This document shows, piece after piece, positions 2,840 to 62,997 of a stretch of 64,000 nucleotides of DNA; within the stretch, counting starts at the first letter, position 1, and the number at the start of each line of letters is the position of its first letter. A program made the translations under genes and the position numbers. This DNA comes from a virus. Taxonomy: Duplodnaviria > Caudoviricetes. Location of the stretch: IMG/VR virus record IMGVR_UViG_2654587921_000002, positions 15,023 to 79,022 of that record; one strand, given 5' to 3'. Below the pieces are notes generated by a model. The model had not been told where the DNA came from, searched no databases, and worked only from the letters and a program-made list of their open reading frames with translations.

Positions 2840-3115
2840 TGATTTCCAAGAAGTTTACCAGTTTTATCAATGTAGCTAAATCCTTCTCCATCTCCATTTG
2901 CAACAACAGCCATCCCTTCTGAAAAATGGCTTGCTGCTACAAATTATCATATTTCCGCTATGGTCAATAAAACCATATTTACCATTGACCTCCACTCCTG
3001 CAAGCCCCTCAGAAAATTCCGTTCCTCATTTATACTGTAACCTAATTACTTCTTTTTCGTTTTTGTCAACGCAGCCTACTTTGTCAGCAATTTAACAAGA
3101 GTTCAACCTTCTGAA
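2840..3115 (-). pseudogene. WG-repeat (KWG) protein remnant
   Basis: Three degenerate repeats SEG*TLVKL, FSEGLAGVEVNGKYGFIDHSG and FSEGMAVVANG..FSYIDKTG, broken by stops and frameshifts. Confidence 0.75.
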
Positions 3116-3227
3116 ACTCATGCATAACACCTGTATATATGCTGCATTATAATAACCACCCTACATGTAAAACCTACCGTAATTCCGACAGGGCGTACAC
3201 TTTGCATATGCTAAGCTTTACAAAAGC

Positions 3228-3965
3228 TTATGCTGGTTTTTTATTTTTTGCAAACCTCAATAATGCTATATAATTTATAAAACCAAATAGACCAAATGCC
3301 ACATACAGAGTAGCTTCACGAAACATATAATCTATTACAAGTATTAGCATCCATCCAATAATTGATGAAATAAAACTAATTAATAAGTTTCTCTTAATGC
3401 CATGTACGCCATTAAACCTAATACCAGAGCCTACTACTAATAGGACACTTTTTGCAACTGGCATAACCATTCCAGCCGTAAATAACCATACAAGATGAAG
3501 AAATGGGTTTTGCGGAAATGAAAAATATAACATATATCCCGGAATAGTTACTGCTAAACCAATTATAGCACCACCTATTCCATACTCCCAATCAACTCGT
3601 CCTGCTTTTTGACGTATAGTTGAAATGGCACGAATAGCAAAACCATACAGAATTCCATACCAAAGTAAAACCGTCGTATTTTGTTCTAACTCGAATCTAA
3701 CATAATTGTTAGGGTACTTTGAAGTAGCGCCAAGCATAAACATAAATATTAATATTCCTAACCCTACTGCCAATTCAGCTAACACAGCCATATTATTATT
3801 TCCAATTGAGTCATTTCCTACGGCTTTCGACATACTTATAGTGCTTGATATTTCTCCTATCGCACTGGTAGTATCTATTCCATCCTGCGCCGTAGCCTTA
3901 CCACATTTCTGGCAAAAACGAGCACTATCTGGTACTTCTTGACCGCAATGAATACAAAATCGCAT
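3228..3965 (-). CDS. Zinc-ribbon-headed multi-pass membrane protein
   Basis: FCIHCG...FCQKCG N-terminus followed by several hydrophobic segments. Confidence 0.8.
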   Translation of the reverse strand: MRFCIHCGQEVPDSARFCQKCGKATAQDGIDTTSAIGEISSTISMSKAVGNDSIGNNNMAVLAELAVGLGILIFMFMLGATSKYPNNYVRFELEQNTTVLLWYGILYGFAIRAISTIRQKAGRVDWEYGIGGAIIGLAVTIPGYMLYFSFPQNPFLHLVWLFTAGMVMPVAKSVLLVVGSGIRFNGVHGIKRNLLISFISSIIGWMLILVIDYMFREATLYVAFGLFGFINYIALLRFAKNKKPA

Positions 3966-3996
3966 AAATTAAGTCCCTCTTTCTTTTTACAAAATA

Positions 3997-5031
3997 TTAA
4001 TGACCATGTTGAATTATTTTTTGTATGTTATCATCCCCCGGGTAGATATCTCCTTTTATTACGTTACTAACTTTAGCTGCATCGGGCAATAAATTAGGAT
4101 TTGTCTGAACCATTTTACCTGAAACGCCCAATTCGATTGGTATATACAGTTGAAAGGTAGTATCAATATCTTTAACATGTGCATAGTACATTCCCTCACC
4201 ACCATACCACAGTTTGCTAACTTTATAATTCTTCCGTATATCTCCTAAAGTACTACCTTTACTCACCTTGTTGGACGCTAGTTTTGGCTGACCACTTTGA
4301 AGTAATTGAATAACAGCCTCTTGCCCTGATGTATTCAGCCCTAGCTTTTGCCAACCGTTCTTTGTCTTTTCTGCGCATTGCAGAGCTGTTAACCCTGCCG
4401 AATCTTTTGCATTTATTTCTATGTCTTTCGCGCTTAAGAGCACCTGAACAGTTTCTATATATCCTGCTGAAGCTGCAAGCATTAATGGGGTACCTCCTTT
4501 TGTGTCTCTTACATTAACATTGGCACCTTTATCTATTAATAATTTTACAATTTGCGCATTATCACCCGCACAAGCTAATTCCAATAAAGTTGCTCCGTCA
4601 TTATCCTTCAAGTTTGGATTGAGCCCAGATTCTATCAATGCTTTTGCACCATTTACATCTTTATTAAATAAACACTCAACAAACTCACTAACAGTAACGT
4701 TTTTTGTACTGTTTACTTCCATAGCCTGCTTGGTACTCTCCTGATAAGAACTTTGCACCGAAACAGGTTCGCTTTTTCCGAAAAAAGCTATCCCTATTCC
4801 GATAATCACAACAATACTCCCAATTATTAAATATACGTTTTTATTTTTTAATAGCTGACTTTTTTCTGCCGTATATTTCAACTCACCTGAAACATCTGCA
4901 ACCGTAGTAGTATTAACTTCATTGTCGTCACTTGCAGTAAATATACCACGGTAAATTTTTTTGCCACAATTTCGACAGTATTGTGCTTCATCTGCAGCCT
5001 GACTCCCGCAATAATTGCAATAGGACACCAA
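3997..5031 (-). CDS. Zinc-ribbon + TM + ankyrin-repeat protein
   Basis: YCNYCG...YCRNCG, one TM helix, ankyrin repeats (GATLLELAC, GGTPLMLAASAG, GLTALQCA). Confidence 0.85.
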   Translation of the reverse strand: MVSYCNYCGSQAADEAQYCRNCGKKIYRGIFTASDDNEVNTTTVADVSGELKYTAEKSQLLKNKNVYLIIGSIVVIIGIGIAFFGKSEPVSVQSSYQESTKQAMEVNSTKNVTVSEFVECLFNKDVNGAKALIESGLNPNLKDNDGATLLELACAGDNAQIVKLLIDKGANVNVRDTKGGTPLMLAASAGYIETVQVLLSAKDIEINAKDSAGLTALQCAEKTKNGWQKLGLNTSGQEAVIQLLQSGQPKLASNKVSKGSTLGDIRKNYKVSKLWYGGEGMYYAHVKDIDTTFQLYIPIELGVSGKMVQTNPNLLPDAAKVSNVIKGDIYPGDDNIQKIIQHGH

Positions 5032-6543: not shown

Positions 6544-9500
6544 TTAATCTAGACTACCAACTTCCTGAAGTAACTTTGGAACACGAACATCCTTCTTGCG
6601 AAGCTCTGCAAGAACATCGGTTTTTTTATTTTTTGGCAACCGTTGCAAAGCCAACACGCAATCACCGATAATATTTTCTAAAGTAGTTTCGTTACTGCCT
6701 CGAACATATCTAGTGTGATAATAAAACATAAGTTTAAATAAGACAAGTTTTAATAAATCTCGATTTTTTACTTCTTCTGCAAACTTAGCAAGTTCTTGCA
6801 GAAAATTAGGCATTTTTAAATCCGCATATAAAAACACATACATAAATTTTGAAAACTCATTTGCTTCGGCATCCATAACCTGCTTAACTGTCTTGGCAAG
6901 TTTCGCAGTACCAATACTTTCAGCAGCAATGTTTTGTACTACTATCGGGGCAGTTATGCTAAGAAGGTCATAAAGGAATTCTATATCTTCATTACGTTCA
7001 TCTCGAACTTCAGTATTAGCCCCCCTACTATGATGATGGTTAATCATTTCTATCATGGTAGCCAGAAACACTCTATAACCTTGTATGCATTTTTTTAATG
7101 AGTTTAGTTTAGTATTTTTGTCAGCTCTTTCATTATTCTTAATAATACGCCCATACAGGTGCAATGTTTTAAAGAAAACTCGCCCTTCAAATGGGGATGT
7201 TTCTGCCTTTATAACCTTGGGTCTTACCGCTTCCCTACCATTATCAGGTACGTCTACCAAAGAATCATGTTCTTCCTCGGAAAGTTTGTTCTCTCTTAAT
7301 TCCTGTTTTAGCCCTTCTGCATCAGCTTCCATCTCTAGTCTAAGACTAAAGCTTTCGAGATTAGCAAGTAGATGTAAATACTTTTCAACAAAAGGTTCTA
7401 ACTTACCTTCTATTCTAGTTAAGATGTCTTTGCGGTTCCTTTGAATTCCCGCAATAAAACATAATTCATTGCTACATTGCAAGTAGTTTTCATCCCGAAG
7501 CATCCATTCAAGAGCCTCATTATCTACAATTGCCCTTTTAGCTAAATAATATTCAAACAAACAGTGATACCGAAAGTAGACCATTCCCTCATTCTCAGTT
7601 AGAATTTGTTTATCAAAGAAAAGCTTGCCGAATTTGCTTTCTACTAAACTCAAATCCATATCATCAAAGTATTGGGTTGCTAACTTTAAAAAATCTTCTT
7701 TAGTTATTTGGGAGTTAGGCGCGCTTACAATTTTCCATGCAATGTAAGCAAGAAAATCTTCTTTAAATGAAAAATCATAAGTACTTCGATATGTATCATT
7801 AGGGGATAACTTTTCTAAAATTATTTCCATGAAGCGCTCCATGACTGATGCTTCGTTGACAGGAATAAAGTCTTCTTGGTAATTACTACAAATAGCAAGA
7901 ATTAGTGATACATTAAAGGGCGTTCTGGGCATACCAACACATCTCAGGTACAGCATTACTCGGTCTAGCAGTTGGTCCAAATCCACGGTTCTACCATCAA
8001 ACCATTTTGAAGCAATTTTTCTAATAGCATGTCGTGAAAAAGTATGCATATATATTTTTTCATATGCACATCCAAAATCATGTAACTCATCAGCCTTTAC
8101 TGTATGAAAAATGTCTTCGTTCATAGTAAAAATAAATCGGTTTGTGGGATATGTTAATGTGAATGCCCGTAAATATTCATGTTGCTTTGGTTGGTAATAA
8201 TCATAATTATCAAATTGTACTACGCATTGACCGGCATTTAGGAGTTGCTTTATCTGCTCTACCGTCAGATACTCTTCAGGCAACGTATGCTTAGAAACGA
8301 ACGATTGCATACTTTTTTCAATTGGTTCAATGCCTTGAAGTCGCTTCTTCAAGTCTATAATAAACGGTATTTTTTTTCTCTCGCCAAATTCGGATAGGTA
8401 TTTCAGTGTAATATAGTTAAGAATGGTGCTTTTACCGAGTTCCTTTTTTCCGAGTAGTACAAGGTTCTCATTGCCCCTTATAAGGTCGTCTATATCTACG
8501 TGCTCTTGTTGGTCTTCTTCCTCCTTCTGATATTCGGATTGCTTACTTAACGGTTGCGAAACAAAAAGTTCTTCAAACTTTTGCGGTGCACTTTTATCAA
8601 TAATATGAGTCAATAAGTCCTTATTTATTTTTTCTGTGAAACCATCCTTCAGCGGTTTAGCTACCTTATATGCGTTTTGCATTGCCGGGTTGCTACAGTT
8701 AAGTTGCCAATTATAATGACCATTAGAGCATATTCTGAGGGCTTCATCAAAGGAGTCTCGCTCATCGTAATATTCGCGAAAATATACATTTACCTCCTTT
8801 ATGAATGGATTAATGGAAAGCAAAGAATAGCCATTAAAATACGAACGCCCTTGAAATATCGAACCACCACTAGAAAAAAGGGTCGATTGTTTAGGGCCGA
8901 TGACCTGCTTGTCCCATGAATTATGTAAATGACCACTTAAGACAATATCAAATTTCCTTAGTGCAACTTCTACTGAATCTTGGTCCTCATCGATTAACCA
9001 GTCTAAAGGGTGATGCATCAGGGCTATCTTAATGTTGCATGAAGAAATACTCGCATATGCACGCTCCACTTGCCTCTGCCCTATAACTAACTTTCGTTTG
9101 TCCTCTGCTCCCTTACCAGCTGCCCGCCATGCTGAATCCAAACATGCAAAACCAATAGAAGTATCGCTTACTTGCTTTATAAATGCAGCACCTAATCCTT
9201 TTGGATGCTTCCAGACAGCCTCACTTTGAAAATCTTGAAGAAATTTGTAAAAAGGAAGTATTCTCGCATTGTGTGTGTCTTTTAATTCACTATCAATAAA
9301 AGTATTTATTGCGTCCTTTGATTTCAGTTTCGTAAGTAAACCGGCCTCTATAACAGCATCAATAGCAGTTGTATCAACATCATGATTACCAGGTACAATT
9401 AAAAAATGTGACGCGTCTAAATCGGTTATCTTTAAAATTGGGGTAATAAAACTATCCATTGCCATTTCCAATTGGTTTTCACCTTGCCAAGCGTGTTGTC

Positions 9501-9666
9501 CCTGGGCAATGAGGTCTCCCGTAAAGCACACAAAATTAACTTTTCCCTTATCTTTAATAAAAGTTGCAATATCGTCTTTTAAGGCATTAACTACTTTTTG
9601 CACATCAAATTCGCGTTTCTTGCATATATGTAGGTCAGACAGATGTAATATGTTTATTTGTTCCGT
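6544..9666 (-). CDS. Calcineurin-like metallophosphoesterase fused to a STAND/NACHT-like NTPase with helical C-terminus (candidate anti-phage protein)
   Basis: ILHLSDLH (upstream of the called GTG 9603), TGD, PGNHD, MHHP, SGHLH; Walker A GKKELGKST; Walker B VVQFDNYD. Low GC. The only plausible start, judged by RBS spacing, is ACG at 9666. Confidence 0.8.
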   Translation of the reverse strand, partial: TEQINILHLSDLHICKKREFDVQKVVNALKDDIATFIKDKGKVNFVCFTGDLIAQGQHAWQGENQLEMAMDSFITPILKITDLDASHFLIVPGNHDVDTTAIDAVIEAGLLTKLKSKDAINTFIDSELKDTHNARILPFYKFLQDFQSEAVWKHPKGLGAAFIKQVSDTSIGFACLDSAWRAAGKGAEDKRKLVIGQRQVERAYASISSCNIKIALMHHPLDWLIDEDQDSVEVALRKFDIVLSGHLHNSWDKQVIGPKQSTLFSSGGSIFQGRSYFNGYSLLSINPFIKEVNVYFREYYDERDSFDEALRICSNGHYNWQLNCSNPAMQNAYKVAKPLKDGFTEKINKDLLTHIIDKSAPQKFEELFVSQPLSKQSEYQKEEEDQQEHVDIDDLIRGNENLVLLGKKELGKSTILNYITLKYLSEFGERKKIPFIIDLKKRLQGIEPIEKSMQSFVSKHTLPEEYLTVEQIKQLLNAGQCVVQFDNYDYYQPKQHEYLRAFTLTYPTNRFIFTMNEDIFHTVKADELHDFGCAYEKIYMHTFSRHAIRKIASKWFDGRTVDLDQLLDRVMLYLRCVGMPRTPFNVSLILAICSNYQEDFIPVNEASVMERFMEIILEKLSPNDTYRSTYDFSFKEDFLAYIAWKIVSAPNSQITKEDFLKLATQYFDDMDLSLVESKFGKLFFDKQILTENEGMVYFRYHCLFEYYLAKRAIVDNEALEWMLRDENYLQCSNELCFIAGIQRNRKDILTRIEGKLEPFVEKYLHLLANLESFSLRLEMEADAEGLKQELRENKLSEEEHDSLVDVPDNGREAVRPKVIKAETSPFEGRVFFKTLHLYGRIIKNNERADKNTKLNSLKKCIQGYRVFLATMIEMINHHHSRGANTEVRDERNEDIEFLYDLLSITAPIVVQNIAAESIGTAKLAKTVKQVMDAEANEFSKFMYVFLYADLKMPNFLQELAKFAEEVKNRDLLKLVLFKLMFYYHTRYVRGSNETTLENIIGDCVLALQRLPKNKKTDVLAELRKKDVRVPKLLQEVGSLD

Positions 9667-13570: not shown

Positions 13571-14016
13571 CTTAATTCCTCCCTGATGTTATTTATTAAT
13601 TCATCAGTAATGGTAATTACGTGGTCGCCTGGCAGTTTAAACACCCTGTCCGTTATCCTGTATTCTCTACTGGTACCAGTAACTGTATTAACCACCGTAT
13701 AAATACCTGCCGCATAATCCATAATTGTACGTTCCCATGATTTACGCCGATTATCCAACCACAGCCGGCACCAATTAACGCCGATCCGTTTTAACGGCTC
13801 CCGGCACTCTTTCAGGTAATAAAAATACGGCGCCGTCTGTGTACTACGGTTTATCACGCCCTGATCGGCGAGCGCGGCCAGCCTTCGCTGTGCTACCCGG
13901 GTTGACGGGTACAGCAATATCTGTAGCTGCTCCGTATCCAGTACGCCCCATTCCGAAAGTATCTCCTGCAGTCGTGAATCCCTTTGGTAACATTGACGCC
14001 TGAAATTGATCAACAC
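13558..14016 (-). CDS. Replication-relaxation-like/wHTH protein
   Basis: LDTEQLQILLYPSTRVAQRRLAAL...Y motif; canonical position downstream of phage FtsK. Confidence 0.55.
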   Translation of the reverse strand: MLINFRRQCYQRDSRLQEILSEWGVLDTEQLQILLYPSTRVAQRRLAALADQGVINRSTQTAPYFYYLKECREPLKRIGVNWCRLWLDNRRKSWERTIMDYAAGIYTVVNTVTGTSREYRITDRVFKLPGDHVITITDELINNIREELRCAK

Positions 14017-15067
14017 ACATAACCTCCTCCGGATCTAAGTACGGTGTTTGAATCTCCGTAAGTTCCCGCCCCAGTCGCCAGTACGCCCGGCCAGGAATTG
14101 CCGGTAAATTTGCGCCCTCGGATGAATCCAGTATGATCCTGCTGTCGACACCGGATATGGTCTGAAAACACAATCGACCGGTGAAGTTGGCTTTGGCATC
14201 TCCGAAACTCTTGCTGGTAAAAATCTTACTGGACGGCCGCTGAGTGGCAGCTACAATGCATATGCCGGCGGCCCGACACAATCTGAGTAATGTTTCTAAA
14301 TCTTCCTGCGCGTCCTTGTCTTTAAGTTCGGCAAGTTCATCAATAATCAGCACTATGTATGGGATTTTTGCTTTCGTTTTGGCATTATACTTCTGGACGT
14401 TAACAAACCGCGACTCTTTTAATAATAGTTGCCGACGGCGCATTTCCTGTACTAATCGGTTAAGCGCCTGGCAGGCTGTTTCTATTTCCGTAACCAGCAG
14501 TATTCTGTTTTCAAGGTAGTTATATTCGCTCATTTTTAAGTCAAGCATGACGACAATAGGCGGCTCTGGCAACGACAATAACGAATTAATAATTACATGC
14601 ACCGCGTTTGACTTCCCCGCCCCCGTAGTCCCACCAATGAGCATATGAGGAAGTTTTGCTAAATCGATTACTTGCAATCCTGCTGTACTATAACCTAATG
14701 GTACTGGCAGTACGCCGGCACGCGGATAGTCTGCCGGGTAATCAAAGTAATTTTCCAATAAGTTATTACTGATTTTTAAGATAGCCATTTTCCCCGACTG
14801 TCGGATTTCTGCATTGACCTTATCCCCGCCGGTTGCGTCCTTGAAATAATCAATTTTGCTGTAAAAATCCTTAAATGATATTCCGGCCGGCAGAGCTATT
14901 GTAAATGTGTAGCCGGTCGCTGTTTTATTTTTGACATGGATTTGTGGTCTGCGCGTGTCAGTCCAAAGGGCTTCCAGCGTTTCGATGACGGCCAGCGGAA
15001 TTTCTTGGCCGAACATCGGTAATAAGATTGACCGTACATCGTTTTTAATCTCGGTGAGTATATCCAC
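13844..15067 (-). CDS. FtsK/SpoIIIE-family ATPase
   Basis: PHMLIGGTTGAGKS, LDLK, IIDELAEL, RAAGI..ATQRP. Confidence 0.92.
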   Translation of the reverse strand: MDILTEIKNDVRSILLPMFGQEIPLAVIETLEALWTDTRRPQIHVKNKTATGYTFTIALPAGISFKDFYSKIDYFKDATGGDKVNAEIRQSGKMAILKISNNLLENYFDYPADYPRAGVLPVPLGYSTAGLQVIDLAKLPHMLIGGTTGAGKSNAVHVIINSLLSLPEPPIVVMLDLKMSEYNYLENRILLVTEIETACQALNRLVQEMRRRQLLLKESRFVNVQKYNAKTKAKIPYIVLIIDELAELKDKDAQEDLETLLRLCRAAGICIVAATQRPSSKIFTSKSFGDAKANFTGRLCFQTISGVDSRIILDSSEGANLPAIPGRAYWRLGRELTEIQTPYLDPEEVMCVDQFQASMLPKGFTTAGDTFGMGRTGYGAATDIAVPVNPGSTAKAGRARRSGRDKP

Positions 15068-16202: not shown

Positions 16203-16234
16203 GCTAAGCCCCGGCATGTGCCGGGGCTTATTAC
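16201..16234. terminator. Bidirectional terminator
   Basis: TAAGCCCCGGC-atgt-GCCGGGGCTTA between convergent genes. Confidence 0.75.
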
Positions 16235-17046
16235 TATCCTGTCTTCTTTTTCCGTTTCGGCTTCTCCTGCGCCTTGATTGCCGCAATACTCGCTTCCAGC
16301 GCGGCCATAATATCGATAACCTTGCCAGGCGGCTCAGCTTGTTTTGTCCCAATTACGGTTTTGGCTTTACTATCAATCAGGTTCATAACGGCTTTATGAT
16401 ACTCGTTTTCATATTTACCGGGTTCAAAGTCAGTTATTAGCGATGTAATTAATTGCCGGGCCATATTAAGTTCTTTGTCTGACAGCTTAATACTTCCAGG
16501 CAGATACGTTTCTAGCGCTGCTACCGGTACAATCTCGTCGACAAAAAGCATAGTTGAAAGCGTCAGCGCTCCTTCAGCCGGCCGGATCGCTGCCAGGTAT
16601 TCCTTGCTCCGCAAAACGAATTTTGCAATACCGACTACATTAGCCTCGCCCATAGCCTGCAGCAATAGCGCATAAGCTTTTTGGGCGCCGGTCTCCGGCA
16701 CTAAATAGTAAGACGCGTCATAGTGGCGCGGGTCGATCTGATCCAATTTAACAAAGTCCTCTATGGAGATTACCCTGCTGGCCTGGGGTGCAATGGCATC
16801 TAGCTCTTGTTTGGCAATTACAACATAGCGGTCAGGGGAGATTTGATAGCCTTTAACTATTTCGTCTTGACGGACTTCGGCACCGTCAGAACCGACCTTT
16901 TTATAACTGATTCGGCTATAGTCACTTTTGCGCAGTTGATTAAAGCTGATAGTTTTCTTTTTGGTGGCCGGGTATAAAGCCACCGGAACATTAACAAGCC
17001 CGAAACTAAGCATACCTTTCCATATGGGGCGCATAGTCTCACCCAA
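16234..17046 (-). CDS. ku: Ku (NHEJ DNA end-binding protein)
   Basis: RPIWKGMLSFGLVNVPVALYPA...YYLVPE...VIDIMAALEASI. Confidence 0.95.
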   Translation of the reverse strand: MGETMRPIWKGMLSFGLVNVPVALYPATKKKTISFNQLRKSDYSRISYKKVGSDGAEVRQDEIVKGYQISPDRYVVIAKQELDAIAPQASRVISIEDFVKLDQIDPRHYDASYYLVPETGAQKAYALLLQAMGEANVVGIAKFVLRSKEYLAAIRPAEGALTLSTMLFVDEIVPVAALETYLPGSIKLSDKELNMARQLITSLITDFEPGKYENEYHKAVMNLIDSKAKTVIGTKQAEPPGKVIDIMAALEASIAAIKAQEKPKRKKKTG

Positions 17047-54493: not shown

Positions 54494-55069
54494 TTAAAAT
54501 ACTGTATCCGATTCCTCCGCCGGTGCGGCGCCGTCCTGAGATGCTGGCTGTTCGTCGGCCGGGGCCGTGTCAGTCGTATTTTCGGCCTCCTGCTCCTTGT
54601 TAAACTCCAGTTCCGTCTGCTTCAAAGCCTGATCTAACCGCTTCAAATCGTCCGTTACCAGGCCATGTCGCTTAATCAAACTGGCGAATTCCTTGATCTG
54701 GTAATCTCTGAGCGACCAGCGCACATCCCCGGCCGCTGTAGAGTTTTTCTCGCATCGGCTGAGTTGCTTGTCCAGAATATACATACGGGTTTTTTCATCG
54801 ACCTTTTCCCAAACCTTGGCGTTTATAATCACTCGGAACACGGTTTCGTCCATCATAAACCGATTTGCACCCGATATTACCTGCACATCGGCATCGACTG
54901 GACTGCCTTTCTTCTGCCATGAGCCGGTACGCATCAGATATGCAATTTTTGCTTCCGCCAGGTGTCCGTGATGGTCATCAATCAGGCGGGCTGCCATAAC
55001 CGTTATTGCTTCCGGCGCATATTCGTAGCCGGTCTTTTCCTTAGGTGGTTTAAAACTTTTTCTTGCCAT
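54494..55069 (-). CDS. Putative phage metallopeptidase-fold protein (HExxH degenerate)
   Basis: HH.HLAEAKI.YL, INAKVW, EF..LIKRHG; LDKQLSRC replaces the usual HEL.H. Confidence 0.6.
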   Translation of the reverse strand: MARKSFKPPKEKTGYEYAPEAITVMAARLIDDHHGHLAEAKIAYLMRTGSWQKKGSPVDADVQVISGANRFMMDETVFRVIINAKVWEKVDEKTRMYILDKQLSRCEKNSTAAGDVRWSLRDYQIKEFASLIKRHGLVTDDLKRLDQALKQTELEFNKEQEAENTTDTAPADEQPASQDGAAPAEESDTVF

Positions 55070-55473
55070 TAAATATCACCTCTCTGTTGTTTTTGGCCGG
55101 TAACAATGGCCACGGCGTCTTCGACACTCCGGGCGATACCGGCACGGGCACCGCGAGCTTTCATGATACCGATAAAATTTTCTTGTTCGGGCCGGATTCG
55201 TCCGGCTGGGGTTTTGACCTCGATGGCGGCGAACAAGCCGATTTTTTTATTTATCATGTCGTGGGTTATCGTGATTGGGATTATTCCGAATAAATCACTG
55301 AAGCCTGGCGGTAGGCCGGTGTTAAAAGGTCGGGCGTTTTTTAAAATTATGTTGCCGCCTTCCAGCCGGATAACATCGTCTCCGGTCCAGGTTTGGCCAA
55401 CATTGGCACGGAAGAAGGTGCCATGTTTTGATAATTCCAATCGAATTAAATTCTGAATGTCTGTTTCGCGCAA
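55069..55473 (-). CDS. VRR-NUC domain nuclease
   Basis: ETDIQ, G.SDL, IEVKT..GR...EQ..F, ARSV. Confidence 0.92.
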   Translation of the reverse strand: MRETDIQNLIRLELSKHGTFFRANVGQTWTGDDVIRLEGGNIILKNARPFNTGLPPGFSDLFGIIPITITHDMINKKIGLFAAIEVKTPAGRIRPEQENFIGIMKARGARAGIARSVEDAVAIVTGQKQQRGDI

Positions 55474-55477
55474 TAAA

Positions 55478-56848
55478 TCACCGCCTAATATTTTTTAATT
55501 TTGCCTGAATAAACACCCACGACGGCTCATAATTCCTTTCCTTTGCAATCCGCTTTAATTCATCAATCGTCCGCGCCCGTCCAACCTCCTGGCGTAACTG
55601 CTTTTTCTCCCTGGCGATAAACTCTTCAAGTTCTCCCGCCTCTTCGGCCAGCTGCCGTTCAGAGATTTGGTATTGATATCCGCATTCAGGACATACAGGT
55701 GCTGGCTTATGTGCATAGTAGCAGCAGGGACACTGCCTTATAAATACCTTTGCGGCCTCACCTTTACGCCGGGATTTAACCTCTGATTCTAACGTCCAAA
55801 CCCTATCAGCGTCAGGCAAATCATGGTGAAATACGTTGCCGCAGTGATCGAGAATTGTTGCTATCTTAAATGGATTATCTGGGTCAGGCCTTAACGCCCG
55901 GCCGACCATTTGTATGTATAAGCTCAGTGATTGAGTCGGCCGGAGCATTATAACACCTTCACAATTTGGAATGTCGGCCCCTTCGGTATAAAGCTCCACA
56001 TTCACAAGTACAAGCGTTTCTCCGCGTCTAAACCGTTCCATAGCCGCTTCGCGTTCTTCATCTGGGGTGTTGCCATCTACGGCCTCGGCTGGTACACCAG
56101 CATCGCAAAACTGCTTGGCAACCTGTTTAGTGTGTTCAACGGATACACAGAAAGCAATGGCCCGCTTGCCTGGAAGAAACCTTTCGTAGTGCTGGATTGC
56201 ATCACCGGTAATATGGCTTTTAGCGACAGCCTGGAATAGTTCTCCCTTGGCATAATCACCAGCAAGTGTAGGTACACTGTCCAGATTCATTACTTGAGGC
56301 GGGGCCAGGTATTTGTATCTGCATAAGAATCCCCATTCCATCAATTGCCGGATAGACGGTCCCTGTACCATTACGTCATAACAATCTGACATGGGCTCGC
56401 CGGAAAGTCTTTTCGGGGTAGCGCTAAGGCCGATTATAATGGAGTCATTTTCATAATAATAATCAGCAATTTCACTCCATGTGCGGCTTTTTTGGTGCTG
56501 AGCTTCGTCGACTATCAATATTTTAGGAATTGGAATTTTGGCTAGTCGCCGTCTCAGGGTTCCCACACTGGCTACTTGCATTAGCAGTGATGTGTCTTGC
56601 GCTATCCCTGCTTTTATAATGCCGTGCGGGACAGATATCCGGTCCAGTGTATTACTTGCTTGTTTTACTAATTCCGTCCGGTGGGCCATCATACAGGCTC
56701 TGTAACCGTTGCTTATAGTGCCTTTAAGGATAAAAGATGCAATTGCTGTTTTGCCGCCCCCACAGGCAAGTTGTATTAATATACGGCGCTGGCCATCTTT
56801 GATTTGTTCGCGGACTTTATTGATTATTTGTTGCTGGTAATCTCGCAA
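55478..56848 (-). CDS. SF2 DEAD/DEAH-box helicase
   Basis: ACGGGKT, VDEAQH, SATP, EGAD.P, QMVGRALR. Confidence 0.93.
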   Translation of the reverse strand: MRDYQQQIINKVREQIKDGQRRILIQLACGGGKTAIASFILKGTISNGYRACMMAHRTELVKQASNTLDRISVPHGIIKAGIAQDTSLLMQVASVGTLRRRLAKIPIPKILIVDEAQHQKSRTWSEIADYYYENDSIIIGLSATPKRLSGEPMSDCYDVMVQGPSIRQLMEWGFLCRYKYLAPPQVMNLDSVPTLAGDYAKGELFQAVAKSHITGDAIQHYERFLPGKRAIAFCVSVEHTKQVAKQFCDAGVPAEAVDGNTPDEEREAAMERFRRGETLVLVNVELYTEGADIPNCEGVIMLRPTQSLSLYIQMVGRALRPDPDNPFKIATILDHCGNVFHHDLPDADRVWTLESEVKSRRKGEAAKVFIRQCPCCYYAHKPAPVCPECGYQYQISERQLAEEAGELEEFIAREKKQLRQEVGRARTIDELKRIAKERNYEPSWVFIQAKLKNIRR

Positions 56849-56927: not shown

Positions 56928-57410
56928 CTAAAACGGCATCTCTTCCTCGGGGAATTTGTCGTTGCCGAACGCAGATTGATTAGTTGCGGCCTGTGTCTGG
57001 GCTACCGGCTTTTCAACAATCCGTCTCAGGTTTTTAAATTGGCCGTTATTGCCTGACTTTAATTCGATCTCAACGGTTTGACCAACAAGCCCTTTCATAA
57101 TGTTTTCAAGATTGGCGGATGTCGGAGTAAAGCCTAAGTATTTGAAGTCATCAGTAGCTCGACGCACAGCTTTTTTATTGTCCTCGCTGTTGTCGTTTTT
57201 ATAAAACGCTCGGTCAATCCAGATATGACTTCCTTTTTGTTCACCATCAATAACCTTAAGTTCCCAATGAACCTTGTCTTTCGTTTGGTCTTTGGTTTTA
57301 CCAAACTCGCACTTTATTACTTCAGCCTGATATTTACCATCCGGTAAATCATCGGCAAATTGCTTTACCTCTTGTCCTGCTGCTTCATCCCAAATATCTT
57401 TAAAACTCAT
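56928..57410 (-). CDS. DUF669 ssDNA-binding-like protein
   Basis: LPDGKYQAEV, acidic C-terminus EEEMPF. Confidence 0.8.
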   Translation of the reverse strand: MSFKDIWDEAAGQEVKQFADDLPDGKYQAEVIKCEFGKTKDQTKDKVHWELKVIDGEQKGSHIWIDRAFYKNDNSEDNKKAVRRATDDFKYLGFTPTSANLENIMKGLVGQTVEIELKSGNNGQFKNLRRIVEKPVAQTQAATNQSAFGNDKFPEEEMPF

Positions 57411-57553
57411 GTTTGTACCTTCTTTCTTCGGCTCTTGGCCGATAAATATTCCGTTTGGGCAGGGTTCTCCTGGCCCTAAATCATCGGGACATTCTCCCCC
57501 ATAGTTCAGTAATCCTGGGCAGTTTGTTGGACATACCCATCTTTCATCGCTGA

Positions 57554-58363
57554 TCATGCAGGCATTAACTCAGTATAATGAATAATTTTATCGACTTTCT
57601 TAGTTGCCCGGCAGTACTCGCACCGCTCGCACCTGACAGGCGGTTCCTTGCCTGCCTTTACCGCAATAATCCGCGGCATGTTTTCCCGGATTTTATTTAA
57701 CTCCTCCTGCACTCGGTCATGATCCGTCAGGTCGATGATTGCATGGTCAGGAACCTTTTCCTTTGACACGGCGATGCAGTAAAAGTCTCGCCAATTGTCC
57801 CGGCCTCGGGCAATTCTCTCAACTTCGGAGTAAACAGCAACCTGAATCATATACTGCCATTCCTCAATAAAAGATACATATTTTCTGATCTCATCGGACC
57901 AGACATGCTCGGTGATTGACTTAGTTGTTTTTAGGTCCAGCAGGTAATTTAATCCTGGATTATCAACGTCAATTTTTACTTTCCATGGGATGCCGAACAT
58001 TTCGGCGGTTAAGATAATTTCTTTGCGCCCCTGCAGGTAAAACATAACTTTGGGATCATTAGCCAGGCAGGCAATCATTTCATCAGCATGCCGGTACTCG
58101 GACTTTAATTCTCCCTTGGTAGGGCCCTTTGACGAAATAATCTCCGGATGGTCACAGATGAATTTTTCTAATGCATCCGGACCCTCTGCCCAGCAGTGCA
58201 CATATTGGCCTACAAGCAGGGCTGTTTTATCTTCGGGCTCATATTCGCCTTTCAGATTCGCTAGCGTGGCGGCTTCGCAGGAGATCCAATTTTTATATTG
58301 GCTGACAGACATATAATGCAAGTTCGCGGCTTGGCTATGGTAATTTCCAGCGGTTAACTGCAT
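57554..58363 (-). CDS. PD-(D/E)XK exonuclease (DUF3799 type)
   Basis: MSVSQYK, KVKID, DLKTT, Y.IQ.AVY, CERCEYC. Confidence 0.9.
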   Translation of the reverse strand: MQLTAGNYHSQAANLHYMSVSQYKNWISCEAATLANLKGEYEPEDKTALLVGQYVHCWAEGPDALEKFICDHPEIISSKGPTKGELKSEYRHADEMIACLANDPKVMFYLQGRKEIILTAEMFGIPWKVKIDVDNPGLNYLLDLKTTKSITEHVWSDEIRKYVSFIEEWQYMIQVAVYSEVERIARGRDNWRDFYCIAVSKEKVPDHAIIDLTDHDRVQEELNKIRENMPRIIAVKAGKEPPVRCERCEYCRATKKVDKIIHYTELMPA

Positions 58364-58530: not shown

Positions 58531-59100
58531 TCATTTCTTATCGAAGTAACATGCCGCCAAATCTGCCAGGTGCAGAGCCACCGCCAACGGATGTCCATTA
58601 AAAGCCTTACTCATTACCTGCCTGGTCGCATAATCCGTATCAGATAAGCCCATATGCCAGCGAATCGCCATGACCTCTTCCAAAGTGAGGCGAATCATCT
58701 GCTGGAGTATAATCACGGACTTTTCGCCGTGCCCTAATGGAATCTGGTCATCAATGGCATAAAACGGAAGTGAGTGCCAGCCGGTAAGCTGTTTGCCGTC
58801 CACGATAGGGTCTTTTTTGTTTCGCATTTCGACCTTATAGAAATTGGCTTTACAAAGATCATGCAGTAAAGCTGTGATTGCAATAGAGTCCTGTTTGTCC
58901 GCTAGATATAACGGTGCAAGCTTTGTCAGGTTGTCAAACACAGCAAGAGAATGTTCCAGTAATCCGCCTTCCTTCGCGCCGTGGTATTGAGTGCTGGCCG
59001 GTGCCGTAAAGAAGTCCGTTTTCTCTGACAGGTAAGTAATAACGTTCTCAATCCCTGGCCGCTGTGTTTCGCGGAGTAAATTTACAAATCTGTCCTTCAA
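58531..59100 (-). CDS. HD-domain hydrolase
   Basis: APAST.YHG...GGLLEHSL, LLHDLCK, GHGEKS, RWHMG. Confidence 0.92.
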   Translation of the reverse strand: MKDRFVNLLRETQRPGIENVITYLSEKTDFFTAPASTQYHGAKEGGLLEHSLAVFDNLTKLAPLYLADKQDSIAITALLHDLCKANFYKVEMRNKKDPIVDGKQLTGWHSLPFYAIDDQIPLGHGEKSVIILQQMIRLTLEEVMAIRWHMGLSDTDYATRQVMSKAFNGHPLAVALHLADLAACYFDKK

Positions 59101-59771
59101 TCCATTACCTCCACTTCTTTAACTTGAGACTCCCGCCATGCCCGCTCGGCAGCCGATTCGGCGCGGTCAGGCGTGACATTAATCATGTCTTCGCGCTCAT
59201 CCCGCGAATACAAACCCATTGTGAGTTCCGGTGCATGTGTCCGGATCAGGAATGCCGCTGCTCGGTACTGAAGCATAACCTCGGGCATGGTTTTCCACTT
59301 ACTGCCGTTTTTGCCATGCCAGCCTTCACCCTTGGCCATTTCAATGGTGACCCTGGGGCCGACCAGTTTTTCACCAGTGGATAATTCGGTCATATGCGCC
59401 CGGCAGCCCCAATCGTCCTGGCCTTCGGTACCAACCCACTCATAACGGATTTTTGAATACCGGCCGCACTCGTTAGCAATGGCAATCAGGAACTTACTGG
59501 ACCAGTTTGGCTTGCCTTGAATAACATCCAGGTTCTGCATAACCATCATGGCGTTTATCCCAAAGCGCTGGGCATATTCAAGGGCTATAAAGCAGTTTTC
59601 CGGTTTGTTTTGGTAAACTGCTGGAATAATAGTAGATTTGGACATTAACTCAGCTACTTGTTTTAATTGTCCGTAATTGCCGCCGGTTAAGGCGATAGAT
59701 GACGATGCTTCAGGTATTTCTGCCGGCAGCGATTGTTCGGATTCTGACTCGGTGTCAAATATATCACTCAT
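59097..59771 (-). CDS. RecT/Bet-like single-strand annealing protein
   Basis: PENCFIAL, MQNL.VIQGKP.W, W..MPE.ML.YRA. Confidence 0.82.
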   Translation of the reverse strand: MSDIFDTESESEQSLPAEIPEASSSIALTGGNYGQLKQVAELMSKSTIIPAVYQNKPENCFIALEYAQRFGINAMMVMQNLDVIQGKPNWSSKFLIAIANECGRYSKIRYEWVGTEGQDDWGCRAHMTELSTGEKLVGPRVTIEMAKGEGWHGKNGSKWKTMPEVMLQYRAAAFLIRTHAPELTMGLYSRDEREDMINVTPDRAESAAERAWRESQVKEVEVMD

Positions 59772-59878: not shown

Positions 59879-60142
59879 TTACAACGTGCCATTACGGGCC
59901 CTTTCCCACATCTGATTTGTGGGGTTCTTTTCCTCAACCCAGCCTTGGCCTTCGCGGTAATCAAGATTGCCAGCATATATTTCCTCGCTTTTCTTGCCTG
60001 ACCATTCGCCGGGGCAATCTGTAGTTAAACTGCCTTCCATTAGACCGCAAACCTTGCAAATTGATAAGCCGCCATCGCATACCATGCATCCTGGCTCGCC
60101 ATTACAATTACAGTCCTTTGGTTCTCTATATTGATGGTCCAT
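59879..60142 (-). CDS. Small Cys-rich phage protein
   Basis: C..C.GGL.IC..CG..EGSL.T.CPG. Confidence 0.65.
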   Translation of the reverse strand: MDHQYREPKDCNCNGEPGCMVCDGGLSICKVCGLMEGSLTTDCPGEWSGKKSEEIYAGNLDYREGQGWVEEKNPTNQMWERARNGTL

Positions 60143-61482
60143 TATCCAGCAGCCTCCGACGCCTTAATCTCGCCATCCTCAATGTAAATGCCGACCGTAG
60201 AATCAGTACTGACGCTTGTTGTCCAAACCTGGAAGTCATTCACCGTTGCCATTTCTTCCACAATCTTTCTTTGGTCTGGATCCAGTGATTCGTAACCATC
60301 AATCATAACCACTCTGAGCTCTGGATTCGCTGCCATGCCTACGCCCATGCCGACACGAATTTTCTGGGCGCTGCTGGCCTGGCTGAATGGCTTGCCTTCG
60401 AAGGTTACGCCGCCGCCCGCGAAGTCCAGGCCCGGCACTGGGAATTTGGTGTTCTTGATAATCTCGGCTTTATAGTCAACAATTTTCTTGAGTTTCGCAG
60501 ACAGATCGTCCGACTCGGTTTGGTGCTTGGCGACTTCGGCCGCTTTAGCCTGGCGGTCCTTGTACTGCTGGGCTTGTTTATTGGTTTCGTCGGCCTTGGC
60601 AATCCGCTCATTAATATCAGTCAAGTCCTCGTCTTGCTTGGAATCAATAACAGCCTTTGCCACCTTCAATGCTTGCTCCTGAGCAGATATTTGATTTTCT
60701 TGCTCTACCAGGCTTTTCTTGGCGGCTATTAGTCTGCTTTCAAGATCGCTGATGATTTCCGATGTTGCTGTTTTGTTGGACCGCAATGCAGCTAAATGTC
60801 TTTCTTGGTCTTGATACTCAGCTAAACGATTCGCATTATCCCTGTTAACTTTTTCTAGCTTCTCCTTCTCCGCCACCAATTCTGTCAGTAAAACCGGCTC
60901 AACCTCGGCAACCTCCGGGATACTCTCCAGCGCTTTTTTGGCCTTGTCCAAGTCTCGGTTAACTGCCGTCCGGCTCTCATAAACCGACTTATAAGCCGCA
61001 TTCAGCATGTCCAGCGGATTCGGGCTTTCCTCAATGACTACACCGGATATGTCCGTTAGTTTCGCCGCGTCAACCTTCAATTCAACAACCTTCAGCAACA
61101 TGTCAACCTGTTTTTTGGGATCCTTCTCTTTAGAAAACTCCATCGGATTAAATGCGATCTTGCCGACCAGTTTATCCAGCAGTGTCTGGGGCGAAGGGTA
61201 TTTCGCACCGTCCCGGGTTTCGACCTTTAGAGTGCCGCCAGCTTTAGTTATTGTTCGGGTGACGATGATATCACCAAGATCGACAACTATTTTCCCTTTG
61301 TCGGCGCCTTCTCGGAGAGCTTCGTCCCATTTTGTGCCACACAACGCCGTACCGATAGCGTCCAGTACTGTGGTTTTACCTTGTTCGCATTTGCCGGTAA
61401 TTTCGATCATGTTACCCTGTGGAATAATCTCAATGGCCTTTAACTTCTTAAAGTTTTCGGCTACTAACTTAACAATTTTCAT
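60142..61482 (-). CDS. SMC/Rad50-like ABC ATPase
   Basis: ENFK, Walker A GKCEQGKT, long coiled coil, signature FSQASSAQ, Walker B VMIDG; start at ATG 61482 after GGAGG. Confidence 0.9.
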   Translation of the reverse strand: MKIVKLVAENFKKLKAIEIIPQGNMIEITGKCEQGKTTVLDAIGTALCGTKWDEALREGADKGKIVVDLGDIIVTRTITKAGGTLKVETRDGAKYPSPQTLLDKLVGKIAFNPMEFSKEKDPKKQVDMLLKVVELKVDAAKLTDISGVVIEESPNPLDMLNAAYKSVYESRTAVNRDLDKAKKALESIPEVAEVEPVLLTELVAEKEKLEKVNRDNANRLAEYQDQERHLAALRSNKTATSEIISDLESRLIAAKKSLVEQENQISAQEQALKVAKAVIDSKQDEDLTDINERIAKADETNKQAQQYKDRQAKAAEVAKHQTESDDLSAKLKKIVDYKAEIIKNTKFPVPGLDFAGGGVTFEGKPFSQASSAQKIRVGMGVGMAANPELRVVMIDGYESLDPDQRKIVEEMATVNDFQVWTTSVSTDSTVGIYIEDGEIKASEAAG

Positions 61483-61559
61483 TTGTACCTCCACGCATAA
61501 TTTACCAGGAATATACATATACTAAACTGGGGAAGTCCGGCCCATTGGCGAAGCCAAAA

Positions 61560-61793
61560 TTATTTGTTCTGGTCGATATACTTAACGATATCGCCAATAG
61601 GCTTGCCAATCAGGTCCAGCGCCTCGTTATCCGGAATTTCAATGCTATACTCTTCTTCAATCTCCATAACCAATTCAACTAAATCCAACGAATCTGCGCC
61701 AAGGTCGTCCAATTTAGCTTTTTTGGTTACTTCCGCAGGGTCGCAGCCTAACTGCCCAACAATTAACTCTTTAACTTTTTCGAATGTGGTCAT
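61560..61793 (-). CDS. acpP: Acyl carrier protein (phage-encoded)
   Basis: [14 protein letters not shown]...[24 protein letters not shown] with the phosphopantetheine Ser intact; AAGGAG RBS. Confidence 0.93.
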
Positions 61794-62064
61794 ATGATCG
61801 TCTCTCCTTATACTTTTTTACTCTCCGATGTACTGCTGATTGGTCCATACCATATATCTCACCAATTTCGCTGTAAGGGATTTTCTGTTTACGCAGTTTA
61901 ATCATGTCCTCAGTGTCGGAATCTGTTAAATCACATCGGTTATTATGCTGTGTCGTCACCCCGCACACATAATCCAGTGCCCGTTCAACGGTGTACTTCG
62001 GTGATATTAACGCAAGCGCAAATGCACACCAATTCACGTCATTTAATACCGCGGCCGCTCTCAT
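61771..62064 (-). CDS. Hypothetical protein with C-terminal HTH
   Basis: [22 protein letters not shown]. Confidence 0.7.
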
Positions 62065-62333
62065 GTGATATCCACCAATTCGGCGTATCTGACCGGCACC
62101 TCGCCGGTAAACACATCAGTTGATACATATACCTTAGGCGGCTCCTGGCATCTTAAAATAGGCGGCTTGCAATTCTGGCAAACAAATTTACTGTCTCCTT
62201 GCGGGTAAAATTTCAGGCCTGATGTTAAACTAACTCCACAACAACGGCAACGAATATGTTTCATGGCACTACTTCGCACCTCCAAACAGATCATGTAACA
62301 CCCTGGGGTTATAATGCCGCTCACTTTCCACAT
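62061..62333 (-). CDS. Small CxxC protein
   Basis: CRCC, CQNC; true start likely MKHIR. Confidence 0.45.
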   Translation of the reverse strand: MWKVSGIITPGCYMICLEVRSSAMKHIRCRCCGVSLTSGLKFYPQGDSKFVCQNCKPPILRCQEPPKVYVSTDVFTGEVPVRYAELVDIT

Positions 62334-62658
62334 AGTTAGACCGCTTTTTCATCTCACCGCGAACTCGGTCTAATTCATTGAAGAACGGATTGTTTTTTGC
62401 CACCAATTCAGACAGTGGTTTTATAATCCGAATCGCATCATCCGCGTTTCTCCGGCGTCGTGACCATTCTCTTAGTAGCCTTATTAGTTTCCTGTCTTCA
62501 GTGCGGGTGGTTTTGTTAAATTCCGCATAATGCCGGATATCGCAAATTGCTTTATCGCTTAGGCTGTATTCTTCTTCAAGACTTTTTAATGCAGCCGGCA
62601 GTGTCCGGACAACAGAGGCAAAATCATCAGTTAGTTTTCGAATCTCTGATGGGGTCAT
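62269..62658 (-). CDS. Hypothetical coiled-coil phage protein
   Basis: D..HY.E......R.RR..DD...Y.PR motif. Confidence 0.7.
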   Translation of the reverse strand: MTPSEIRKLTDDFASVVRTLPAALKSLEEEYSLSDKAICDIRHYAEFNKTTRTEDRKLIRLLREWSRRRRNADDAIRIIKPLSELVAKNNPFFNELDRVRGEMKKRSNYVESERHYNPRVLHDLFGGAK

Positions 62659-62909
62659 TGAAGGCCGACCTTGTGCGCCGCTTTCTTTACGCAATCCGGG
62701 CAGAGTCTTACAGCATCCAGACTAACCAAGCCATCAGCGCTCCCGCACACGACGCAGCCAGGGTTATATTTTCTGAGAATGATTCGGTCACCATCGACGA
62801 AGATTTCGAGCGGGTCCTTTTCTTCTATATCCAGTGTCCGGCGCAACTCGCGGGGAATAACTACGCGGCCGAGTTCGTCCACTTTACGGGTAATGCCAGT
62901 AGACTTCAT
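62655..62909 (-). CDS. AbrB/SpoVT-family regulator
   Basis: MKSTGITRKVDELGRVVIPRELRRTL. Confidence 0.93.
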   Translation of the reverse strand: MKSTGITRKVDELGRVVIPRELRRTLDIEEKDPLEIFVDGDRIILRKYNPGCVVCGSADGLVSLDAVRLCPDCVKKAAHKVGLQ

Positions 62910-62997
62910 ACGTAAACCTCCCATTGTTATTTGATTTTCAATGTGCTAAAATATCCGTAAGTATTTTTTGTTAGGCGCTTCTAAAGAGCGTCTTTTT

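Follow-up and report, generated by a model that had tools for sequence, protein, structure and literature searches.

The acyl carrier protein (ACP) of Escherichia coli, AcpP, binds MukB at its joint and is required for the ATPase activity of that protein (PMC8602292); the MukB-AcpP complex has also been described by cryo-electron microscopy (PMC8669397). Only the MukBEF clade has this requirement, other SMC complexes functioning without AcpP, and the apo- and holo-forms of AcpP are equally active with MukB (PMC8602292). Here, we analyze a phage gene for an ACP that lies directly upstream of a gene for an ATPase with the SMC fold, within a window of 64,000 nucleotides (the whole stretch of DNA studied, positions 15,023 to 79,022 of the IMG/VR virus record IMGVR_UViG_2654587921_000002; Duplodnaviria, Caudoviricetes). 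To our knowledge, MukB is the sole SMC-fold coiled-coil ATPase that needs an ACP, and the window resembles the MukB-AcpP system in that an ACP accompanies an SMC-fold ATPase that has a coiled coil. An initial annotation of this DNA had invoked that precedent, which is real, and had proposed that the ACP was either a dedicated cofactor of the ATPase or a decoy that diverts ACP-dependent host signaling or defense, rather than a lipid-metabolism gene.

Orphan phage ACPs have already been catalogued, and the ACP of the window is one more of them. They are collected in PHROGs 5934 and 4154, where such proteins are placed in the category 'moron, auxiliary metabolic gene and host takeover', and gp32 of the Erythrobacter phage vB_EliS-R6L is annotated as an ACP (PMC5463345). 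In the literature on the function of phage ACPs we found only annotations and one predicted contact, that of a phage ACP with the host FabZ, which is put forward in a preprint (10.64898/2026.03.01.708874). Like these orphans, the window ACP is a stand-alone protein without loading enzymes or enzymes of fatty-acid synthesis (FAS); unlike R6L gp32, it belongs to a clade of three sequences from phages of the Negativicutes and directly abuts the ATPase gene. Our analysis suggests, with a probability that we put at roughly one half, that its gene is an accessory one of the early region, carried in a hypervariable cargo slot, and that the product would be loaded by the host's AcpS and would engage the host partners of ACP.

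An intact carrier in a prophage early operon

The genes on which the argument turns, and the spacer between them, are the following.

61560..61793, minus strand: orphan acyl carrier protein of 77 aa with DSL Ser35 and an isoelectric point (pI) of 4.1 (PF00550, phrog_5934, four-helix bundle in an AlphaFold2 (AF2) model)
61483..61559, minus strand: 77-bp spacer between ACP and ATPase, which contains the ribosome-binding site of the ATPase gene (read from the sequence)
60142..61482, minus strand: SMC/Rad50/RecF-fold ATPase of 446 aa, the first gene of a conserved recombination/replication module (phrog_1499, AF2 model and Foldseek)

The window gene encodes a genuine and intact ACP of the FAS type, and the initial annotation was right to call it canonical, with an intact DSL serine. 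Its product matches the Pfam family PF00550 (PP-binding) with an E-value of 4.8e-13 and 49.6 bits, against a cut-off of 20.8, and the PHROGs family phrog_5934 ('acyl carrier protein') at 2e-16; the best sequence match in the Protein Data Bank (PDB) is AcpP, at 2e-17, and solved AcpPs are 46-50% identical to it. The AF2 model (pLDDT 92.5) has four helices and is aligned by Foldseek with solved AcpPs at TM scores of 0.85-0.91 and an rmsd of about 1.1 A. Ser35, within the motif Asp34-Ser35-Leu36, opens helix II (residues 35-49 of the model), the net charge of the very acidic protein is about -11.5, and an AAGGAG lies 8-9 nt ahead of the ATG of its gene. Across 13 aligned ACPs of phages and hosts, neither Asp34 nor Ser35 varies, and helix II keeps its acidic residues; the DSL motif as a whole is without variation across all the aligned homologues. 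Helix II is the surface that is contacted by AcpS and by the FAS enzymes. The window ACP is thus like the housekeeping AcpP (PF00550) in length, four-helix fold, DSL serine, acidic helix II and a pI of about 4, but it differs from it in lying in a prophage early operon without fab genes, in a 2-residue insertion, in the loss of an acidic residue of helix III and in its position outside the cellular cluster of the phylogenetic tree. The invariance of the serine among the aligned phage-ACP homologues is also unlike the situation in MukB, for which apo- and holo-AcpP are equivalent.

The element that carries this gene is a myovirus-type prophage, whose further genes include those for terminase, portal, head-protease, sheath, tape measure and fiber. 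The nearest named homologues come from Sporomusaceae and other Negativicutes, and the names of these homologues suggest a host of the Sporomusaceae/Negativicutes lineage, which is presumably not a MukBEF organism. Because the stop end of the preceding helix-turn-helix (HTH) gene overlaps the start of the ACP gene by 23 nt, and because no terminator-like site occurs between the ACP and ATPase genes on their coding (minus) strand, the ACP can be placed inside the early operon. There it has the genomic company that the initial annotation had described: no fatty-acid, polyketide synthase (PKS) or phosphopantetheinyl transferase (PPTase) gene was found within the window by Pfam searches of 29 open reading frames (ORFs), which included most of those above 110 aa, and PHROGs searches of ten more. 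The gene does not lie among fabD/fabG/fabF or plsX, its neighbors being phage early and recombination genes. The 5.0-Mb host genome contains its own acpP (G000:C1:1847109), a nonribosomal peptide synthetase (NRPS)/PKS cluster and two PPTases (AcpS and an Sfp-type enzyme, both outside the prophage), all at distances of 0.5 to 3.9 Mb.

The relatives of the window ACP are few. A search of 5.8 billion proteins gave only two close ones (68-69% identity), besides cellular AcpPs with identities of at most 61%; the identity to the host's own AcpP is 58%. In a quick tree of 79 columns, which does not settle the depth of the phage clade relative to the AcpPs of the Negativicutes, the window ACP groups in one clade with these two phage copies (SH-aLRT 90), apart from the cluster of cellular AcpPs. 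The 2-residue insertion, located before helix IV, and the lost acidic residue of helix III are confined to these three members, which also share the C-terminus IVKYIDQNK. Within the clade dN/dS is 0.06-0.10 and dS is saturated. The saturation of dS, a dN/dS of about 0.1, the 58% identity to the host AcpP and the separate clade together indicate an old gene under purifying selection, not a recent capture. The base composition gives another signal, with a GC content of 41.9% in the ACP gene, 48.4% in the ATPase gene, 46.9% in the prophage and 38.9% in the host acpP; the value for the ACP, a gene of 234 bp, is a weak hint of a host-like composition.

A different history is seen in the phage-like contig L339 (the L numbers are our handles for loci, contigs and records). 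Its ACP (2483-2719) is nested in the Negativicutes AcpP clade of the host lineage, with a support of 97, and is located directly upstream of a gene for an ERCC4-type nuclease (2955-3584). This looks like a second capture of an ACP into the early region of a phage, and a more recent one.

The neighboring ATPase and the slot ahead of it

The ATPase gene starts at the ATG at 61482 and not at 61518: the former yields the N-terminus MKIVKL, as in all the homologues, and is preceded by GGAGG 5 nt upstream. This start gives the protein its 446 aa and the gap to the ACP its 77 bp. The match to phrog_1499 is strong (1.5e-90), and those to the Pfam families AAA_23 and AAA_29 are marginal. The AF2 model (pLDDT 84) consists of a split ABC head into which a coiled coil of ~190 residues is inserted (helices 156-343), and its top PDB matches in Foldseek are the heads of Smc, Smc5/6, SbcC, Rad50, RecF and RecN, with E-values of 1e-11 to 1e-8. 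The fold and these matches justify the label 'SMC/Rad50-like', which the initial annotation had given to a protein encoded 77 bp from the ACP.

With the heads of Rad50/SbcC, RecN, RecF and SMC the ATPase shares a Walker A motif (G30-x4-GKT), the split ABC head, an antiparallel coiled-coil insert and its setting in a recombination module. It departs from Rad50/SbcC/SMC in several respects. The coiled coil is short, and it has neither a hinge nor a CxxC zinc hook, there being no Cys pair at its apex (residues about 247-252 of the model); among the neighboring genes, Pfam and PHROGs searches revealed no Mre11/SbcD nuclease and no kleisin family. The Walker B region reads I-D-G-Y-E-S-L-D, and the consensus in an alignment of the ATPase family is IDGxExLD. 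The phrog_1499 proteins appear to have a non-canonical Walker B, D-G-x-E versus D-E, with a Gly at the position of the catalytic Glu of ABC/SMC ATPases and a Glu two residues on. The signature region is S-Q-A-S-S-A-Q-K (the canonical type is LSGGQ). The ATPase also differs from MukB: the phage protein has only 446 aa, its Pfam matches are limited to AAA_23 and AAA_29 with none to MukB, it has no MukEF-like neighbors, and both the protein (pI 5.2) and its coiled coil are acidic, the latter without a marked basic patch.

The relationship between this ATPase family and ACPs was examined in 80 viral, 55 genome and 80 metagenome loci, in 18 genomes of the host class and in seven look-ups of close homologues. 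The flanks of the ATPase loci were scanned with an ACP profile (181 of the first 215 loci had at least 1 kb upstream), and viral contigs were searched with an ATPase alignment, a scan with the single ATPase protein having given no match there; the metagenome loci were, among the matches listed, mostly distant relatives. An ACP was found near the ATPase in 2 of ~235 loci (about 1%), namely only in L050 and L243/L258, and any PF00550 protein in a single one of 50 whole ATPase-bearing viral records. Such counts give no support for an obligate pairing of the kind known for MukB and AcpP. A fusion of ACP and ATPase was likewise absent from 120 near-length homologues or longer proteins, although this is weak evidence.

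The closest relatives of the ATPase have identities of 54-76%. None of the nine (L011, L235, L236, L255-257, L340-342) has an ACP, and all nine retain the block ATPase-RecT-HD-DUF3799-DUF669-helicase; the gene directly ahead of the ATPase is different in each of them, these being mutually unrelated small ORFs, several of them Cys-rich. The nearest relative at the level of the whole phage is L011, with identities of 63% for the AbrB protein, 84% for the zinc ribbon, 60% for the HTH protein, 76% for the ATPase and 89% for the HD protein. Exactly at the position of the ACP, after its HTH gene, L011 has two unrelated small ORFs. From these nine relatives, from L011 in particular, and from the ~235 loci and 50 records, it follows that the ATPase can do without an ACP encoded by the phage. 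The ACP slot is a hypervariable cargo position between the early regulators and the conserved module, and the adjacency of ACP and ATPase is mainly positional, since the ATPase happens to be the first gene of the conserved block.

The contexts of the two close ACP relatives agree with this. In L010 the ACP (68% identical) is followed by a 175-aa unknown protein, an ATPase of the family (27% identical to that of the window), Sak4, a helicase and a primase. In L338 the ACP (also 68%) is preceded by a counterpart of the zinc-ribbon gene of L010 (85% identical) and is followed by genes for a membrane protein and a lipoprotein, not by an ATPase. The ACP therefore keeps company with the early genes ahead of it no less than with the ATPase.

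The genes that flank the ACP and the ATPase in the window are listed here from the upstream side.

62061..62924, minus strand: early genes for a 90-aa zinc-ribbon protein, a 141-aa protein and an AbrB/MazE-like regulator (ORFs, with copies in L011, L010 and L338)
61771..62064, minus strand: HTH protein of 97 aa (phrog_11376 at 3.9e-14 and weak HTH matches in Pfam; 60% identical copy in L011)
59879..60142, minus strand: Cys-rich, zinc-ribbon-like protein of 87 aa (ORF list, without matches in Pfam and PHROGs; L011 has a copy with 78% identity)
59097..59771, minus strand: RecT-like single-strand annealing protein (phrog_561 at 6.7e-72, PF03837)
58531..59100, minus strand: HD-domain phosphohydrolase (PF01966, phrog_28876 at 8.7e-41; kept in relatives without an ACP)
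57554..58363, minus strand: PD-(D/E)XK exonuclease, DUF3799 (PF12684 at 1.9e-79, phrog_1227)
56928..57557, minus strand: DUF669 protein resembling single-strand-binding (SSB) proteins (PF05037 at 9.8e-13, phrog_378)
55478..56848, minus strand: DNA helicase with ResIII and Helicase_C domains (phrog_16 at 3.6e-104)
55069..55473, minus strand: VRR-NUC nuclease (PF08774 at 4.5e-08)

Beyond the VRR-NUC gene the same strand also encodes a metallopeptidase, a C5 methylase and a DUF927 primase-helicase. The HD protein was considered as an AcpH-like ACP phosphodiesterase and rejected in that role, its match being to HD domains in general and its gene being conserved in the relatives that have no ACP.

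Possible roles of the phage carrier

If the ACP is an accessory gene directed at the host, as we favor, its action might be pictured as follows. During lytic growth the host AcpS would phosphopantetheinylate the phage ACP, the phage encoding no AcpS of its own; the loaded carrier would then engage the ACP-dependent enzymes of the host through its nearly unchanged helix II, and might supplement, divert or titrate host fatty-acid or lipid metabolism. The remodeled loop between helices III and IV may narrow its range of partners. That the protein is a working, AcpS-dependent carrier is predicted from the DSL motif, the retained acidic residues of helix II and the purifying selection, and its partners would have to be host proteins because the phage encodes no acyl enzymes. 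A role in lipid metabolism matches both the PHROGs category of such genes and the published prediction of a contact between a phage ACP and FabZ. The initial annotation had set such a role aside, which the almost unchanged helix II does not justify.

A number of points weigh against this reading. The engagement of the host FAS is something that we infer; the host already has abundant AcpP, so the gain from a second carrier is not evident; and the 2-residue insertion and the lost acidic residue of helix III could reflect a new partner in place of the FAS enzymes. There is, moreover, a residual association with the ATPase: the window, L010, L258 and L050 each have an ACP upstream of an ATPase of the phrog_1499 family, on the same strand and at most 0.7 kb away; the phages of L010 and L258 are related to one another, and the ATPases of the four settings are mutually only 27-34% identical. 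The distance is 1.5 kb in L334, and in the Erythrobacter phage R6L an ACP is found 3.6 kb from a phrog_1499-type ATPase, on the opposite strand. A strong match to the ATPase family occurs in 5 of 44 ACP-bearing viral records versus 0 of 48 random ones (Fisher one-sided p=0.022), in a test uncorrected for relatedness or contig size; the ACP-bearing sample was drawn from the 80 ACPs most like that of the window, and the 48 random viral contigs were picked by an arbitrary 14-mer. Such findings would be expected if, by analogy with MukB and its need of AcpP, the ACP were an accessory subunit of the SMC/Rad50-fold ATPase, most phages making use of the host AcpP and a few encoding a tuned copy; that AAA_23 is the commonest Pfam family downstream of phage ACPs points the same way, though with 3 of 119 proteins. 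We nonetheless consider a subunit role unlikely. The nine nearest relatives of the ATPase do without an ACP, only about 1-2% of the ATPase-bearing loci or records have one, and three of the five records with both genes have them at distances of 9.4, 35 and 67 kb; an ACP of the very same clade precedes other genes in L338, and no fused protein was found among the 120 homologues. In the cultured-phage collection, the largest ACP-bearing groups, those of Salmonella, Escherichia and Listeria, do not appear in the organism tally of ATPase matches, and ICP1 has none within 9 kb of its ACP. The acidic ATPase offers no marked basic patch on its coiled coil, and the requirement of MukB is both clade-specific and independent of the serine that is invariant here. 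The more general proposition, that phrog_1499 ATPases as a family would use an ACP as accessory subunit, normally the host AcpP, and that a few lineages would keep a private copy upstream, is if anything a little harder to credit. The enrichment is modest, and the simplest account of it is that certain types of phage keep both genes in their early region for DNA metabolism. The dedicated cofactor of the initial annotation has thus mostly failed to find support, and of the co-occurrence across phages that it envisaged a weak association is seen but no conserved pairing.

It is conceivable, although we think it doubtful, that the ACP is not an acyl carrier but a decoy, counter-defense or signaling protein, which would bind one of the host proteins that normally recognize AcpP, whether a Rel/SpoT-type enzyme, an ACP-dependent toxin or a defense sensor. 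We include in this estimate a variant in which an acidic mimic would block a host nuclease, by analogy with Gam in the lambda Red module. Hypervariable early slots often hold genes for host takeover or anti-defense, the net charge of about -11.5 would suit a mimic, and the clade-specific change of the helix III-IV loop suggests an altered choice of partner; recombination genes are also recurrent neighbors of phage ACPs (RecT in L274/275/283/284, ERCC4 in L339, and the modules with the ATPase). A pure binder or mimic would, however, have no need of the serine, which is invariant together with the whole DSL motif in all the aligned homologues, and neither a candidate target nor, in the literature searched, a description of such a role for a phage ACP was found. 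Finally, the ACP might be a functionless hitch-hiker recently acquired from the host chromosome. Its N-terminus, MTTFEKVKE, is the same as that of the host-lineage AcpP, its GC content falls between those of the host acpP and the prophage, and the case of L339 demonstrates that captures into phages do occur. This has nonetheless become a highly improbable explanation, because the reading frame and motif are intact and because the 58% identity to the host AcpP, the grouping with two phage copies apart from the cellular AcpPs (SH-aLRT 90) and a dN/dS of about 0.1 with saturated dS largely refute a recent capture. The initial annotation had held that a sporadic, recent capture unlinked to the ATPase would undo its proposal: sporadic and largely unlinked the ACP is found to be, but it is not a recent arrival.

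Wider contexts and significance

The surroundings of phage ACPs in general are varied. The two genes downstream of each of 60-odd non-redundant phage ACPs encode 119 proteins with matches to 57 Pfam families, none of which occurs more than three times. Recurrent contexts other than those discussed include T4-like neck and terminase genes, ribonucleotide reductase, FabF and RecT. In L274, L275, L283 and L284 a 494-aa protein of the RecT family is encoded directly upstream of the ACP (e.g., L283:4369-5850). ICP1 was rejected as a case of ACP and ATPase occurring together: the 9 kb around its ACP hold no match to the ATPase family, among the named groups of the cultured-phage collection, the ACP-bearing Salmonella, Escherichia, Listeria and ICP1 phages gave no ATPase match, and the Vibrio records with the ATPase that were shown belong to oyster phages. 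In the gp97 region of ICP1 there are two adjacent ORFs that match the ACP profile (L254:8575-8922 and 8926-9243, at 1.9e-08 and 4.1e-12), both annotated as hypothetical. In the ACP-bearing contig of record G465 one in-frame TAA was reported in the ATPase gene (L343:2773-4056); in the fetched stretch an ORF of 427 aa is open.

The proteins of 155-175 aa encoded between ACP and ATPase in L010, L258 and L050 were considered as possible PPTases or acyl enzymes and rejected, as they have no Pfam or PHROG match; that of L050 is unrelated to those of L010 and L258, and the matches in the ESM Atlas are viral hypothetical proteins only. A viral protein of 172-181 aa, also without Pfam or PHROG match, is encoded directly 3' of the ACP in L258 (8841-9359), L010 (8317-8844) and L270 (7230-7775), the last being a 77.7-kb record with terminal repeats and without any phrog_1499 ATPase. 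This protein was not found in any ACP-less ATPase locus or in the genome of the window; its absence from the former and its presence in L270 indicate that it tracks the ACP and not the ATPase.

Outside the body of the prophage the window has further genes of note. A 1019-aa protein (6544-9603, minus strand), which has both a calcineurin-like metallophosphatase domain and one of the 'novel STAND NTPase 4' type, adjoins ankyrin and zinc-ribbon proteins (3228-5031) and is a candidate defense-type gene. At the left edge a PD-(D/E)XK nuclease and an AAA_24 Sak4-like ATPase form a second recombination pair, and between this pair and the prophage are located an FtsK/HerA-like ATPase and a Ku-like end-binding protein; the left-edge set may be the remnant of another mobile element.

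533-2634, 13844-15067 and 16234-17046, minus strand: left-edge recombination pair, FtsK/HerA-like ATPase and Ku-like protein (joint listing)

Orphan ACPs are recurrent in phages. The window allows a clean natural comparison between sister phages that share their flanks but differ in having or lacking the ACP, and it adds evidence for an old phage ACP gene under selection together with a measured, weak association of phage ACPs with one ATPase family. If that association were functional, the dependence of MukB on AcpP would become a more general trait of SMC-like machines, present in a second and unrelated branch; if it is not, the phage ACP would be an accessory gene of the ordinary sort, probably directed at the lipid metabolism of the host.

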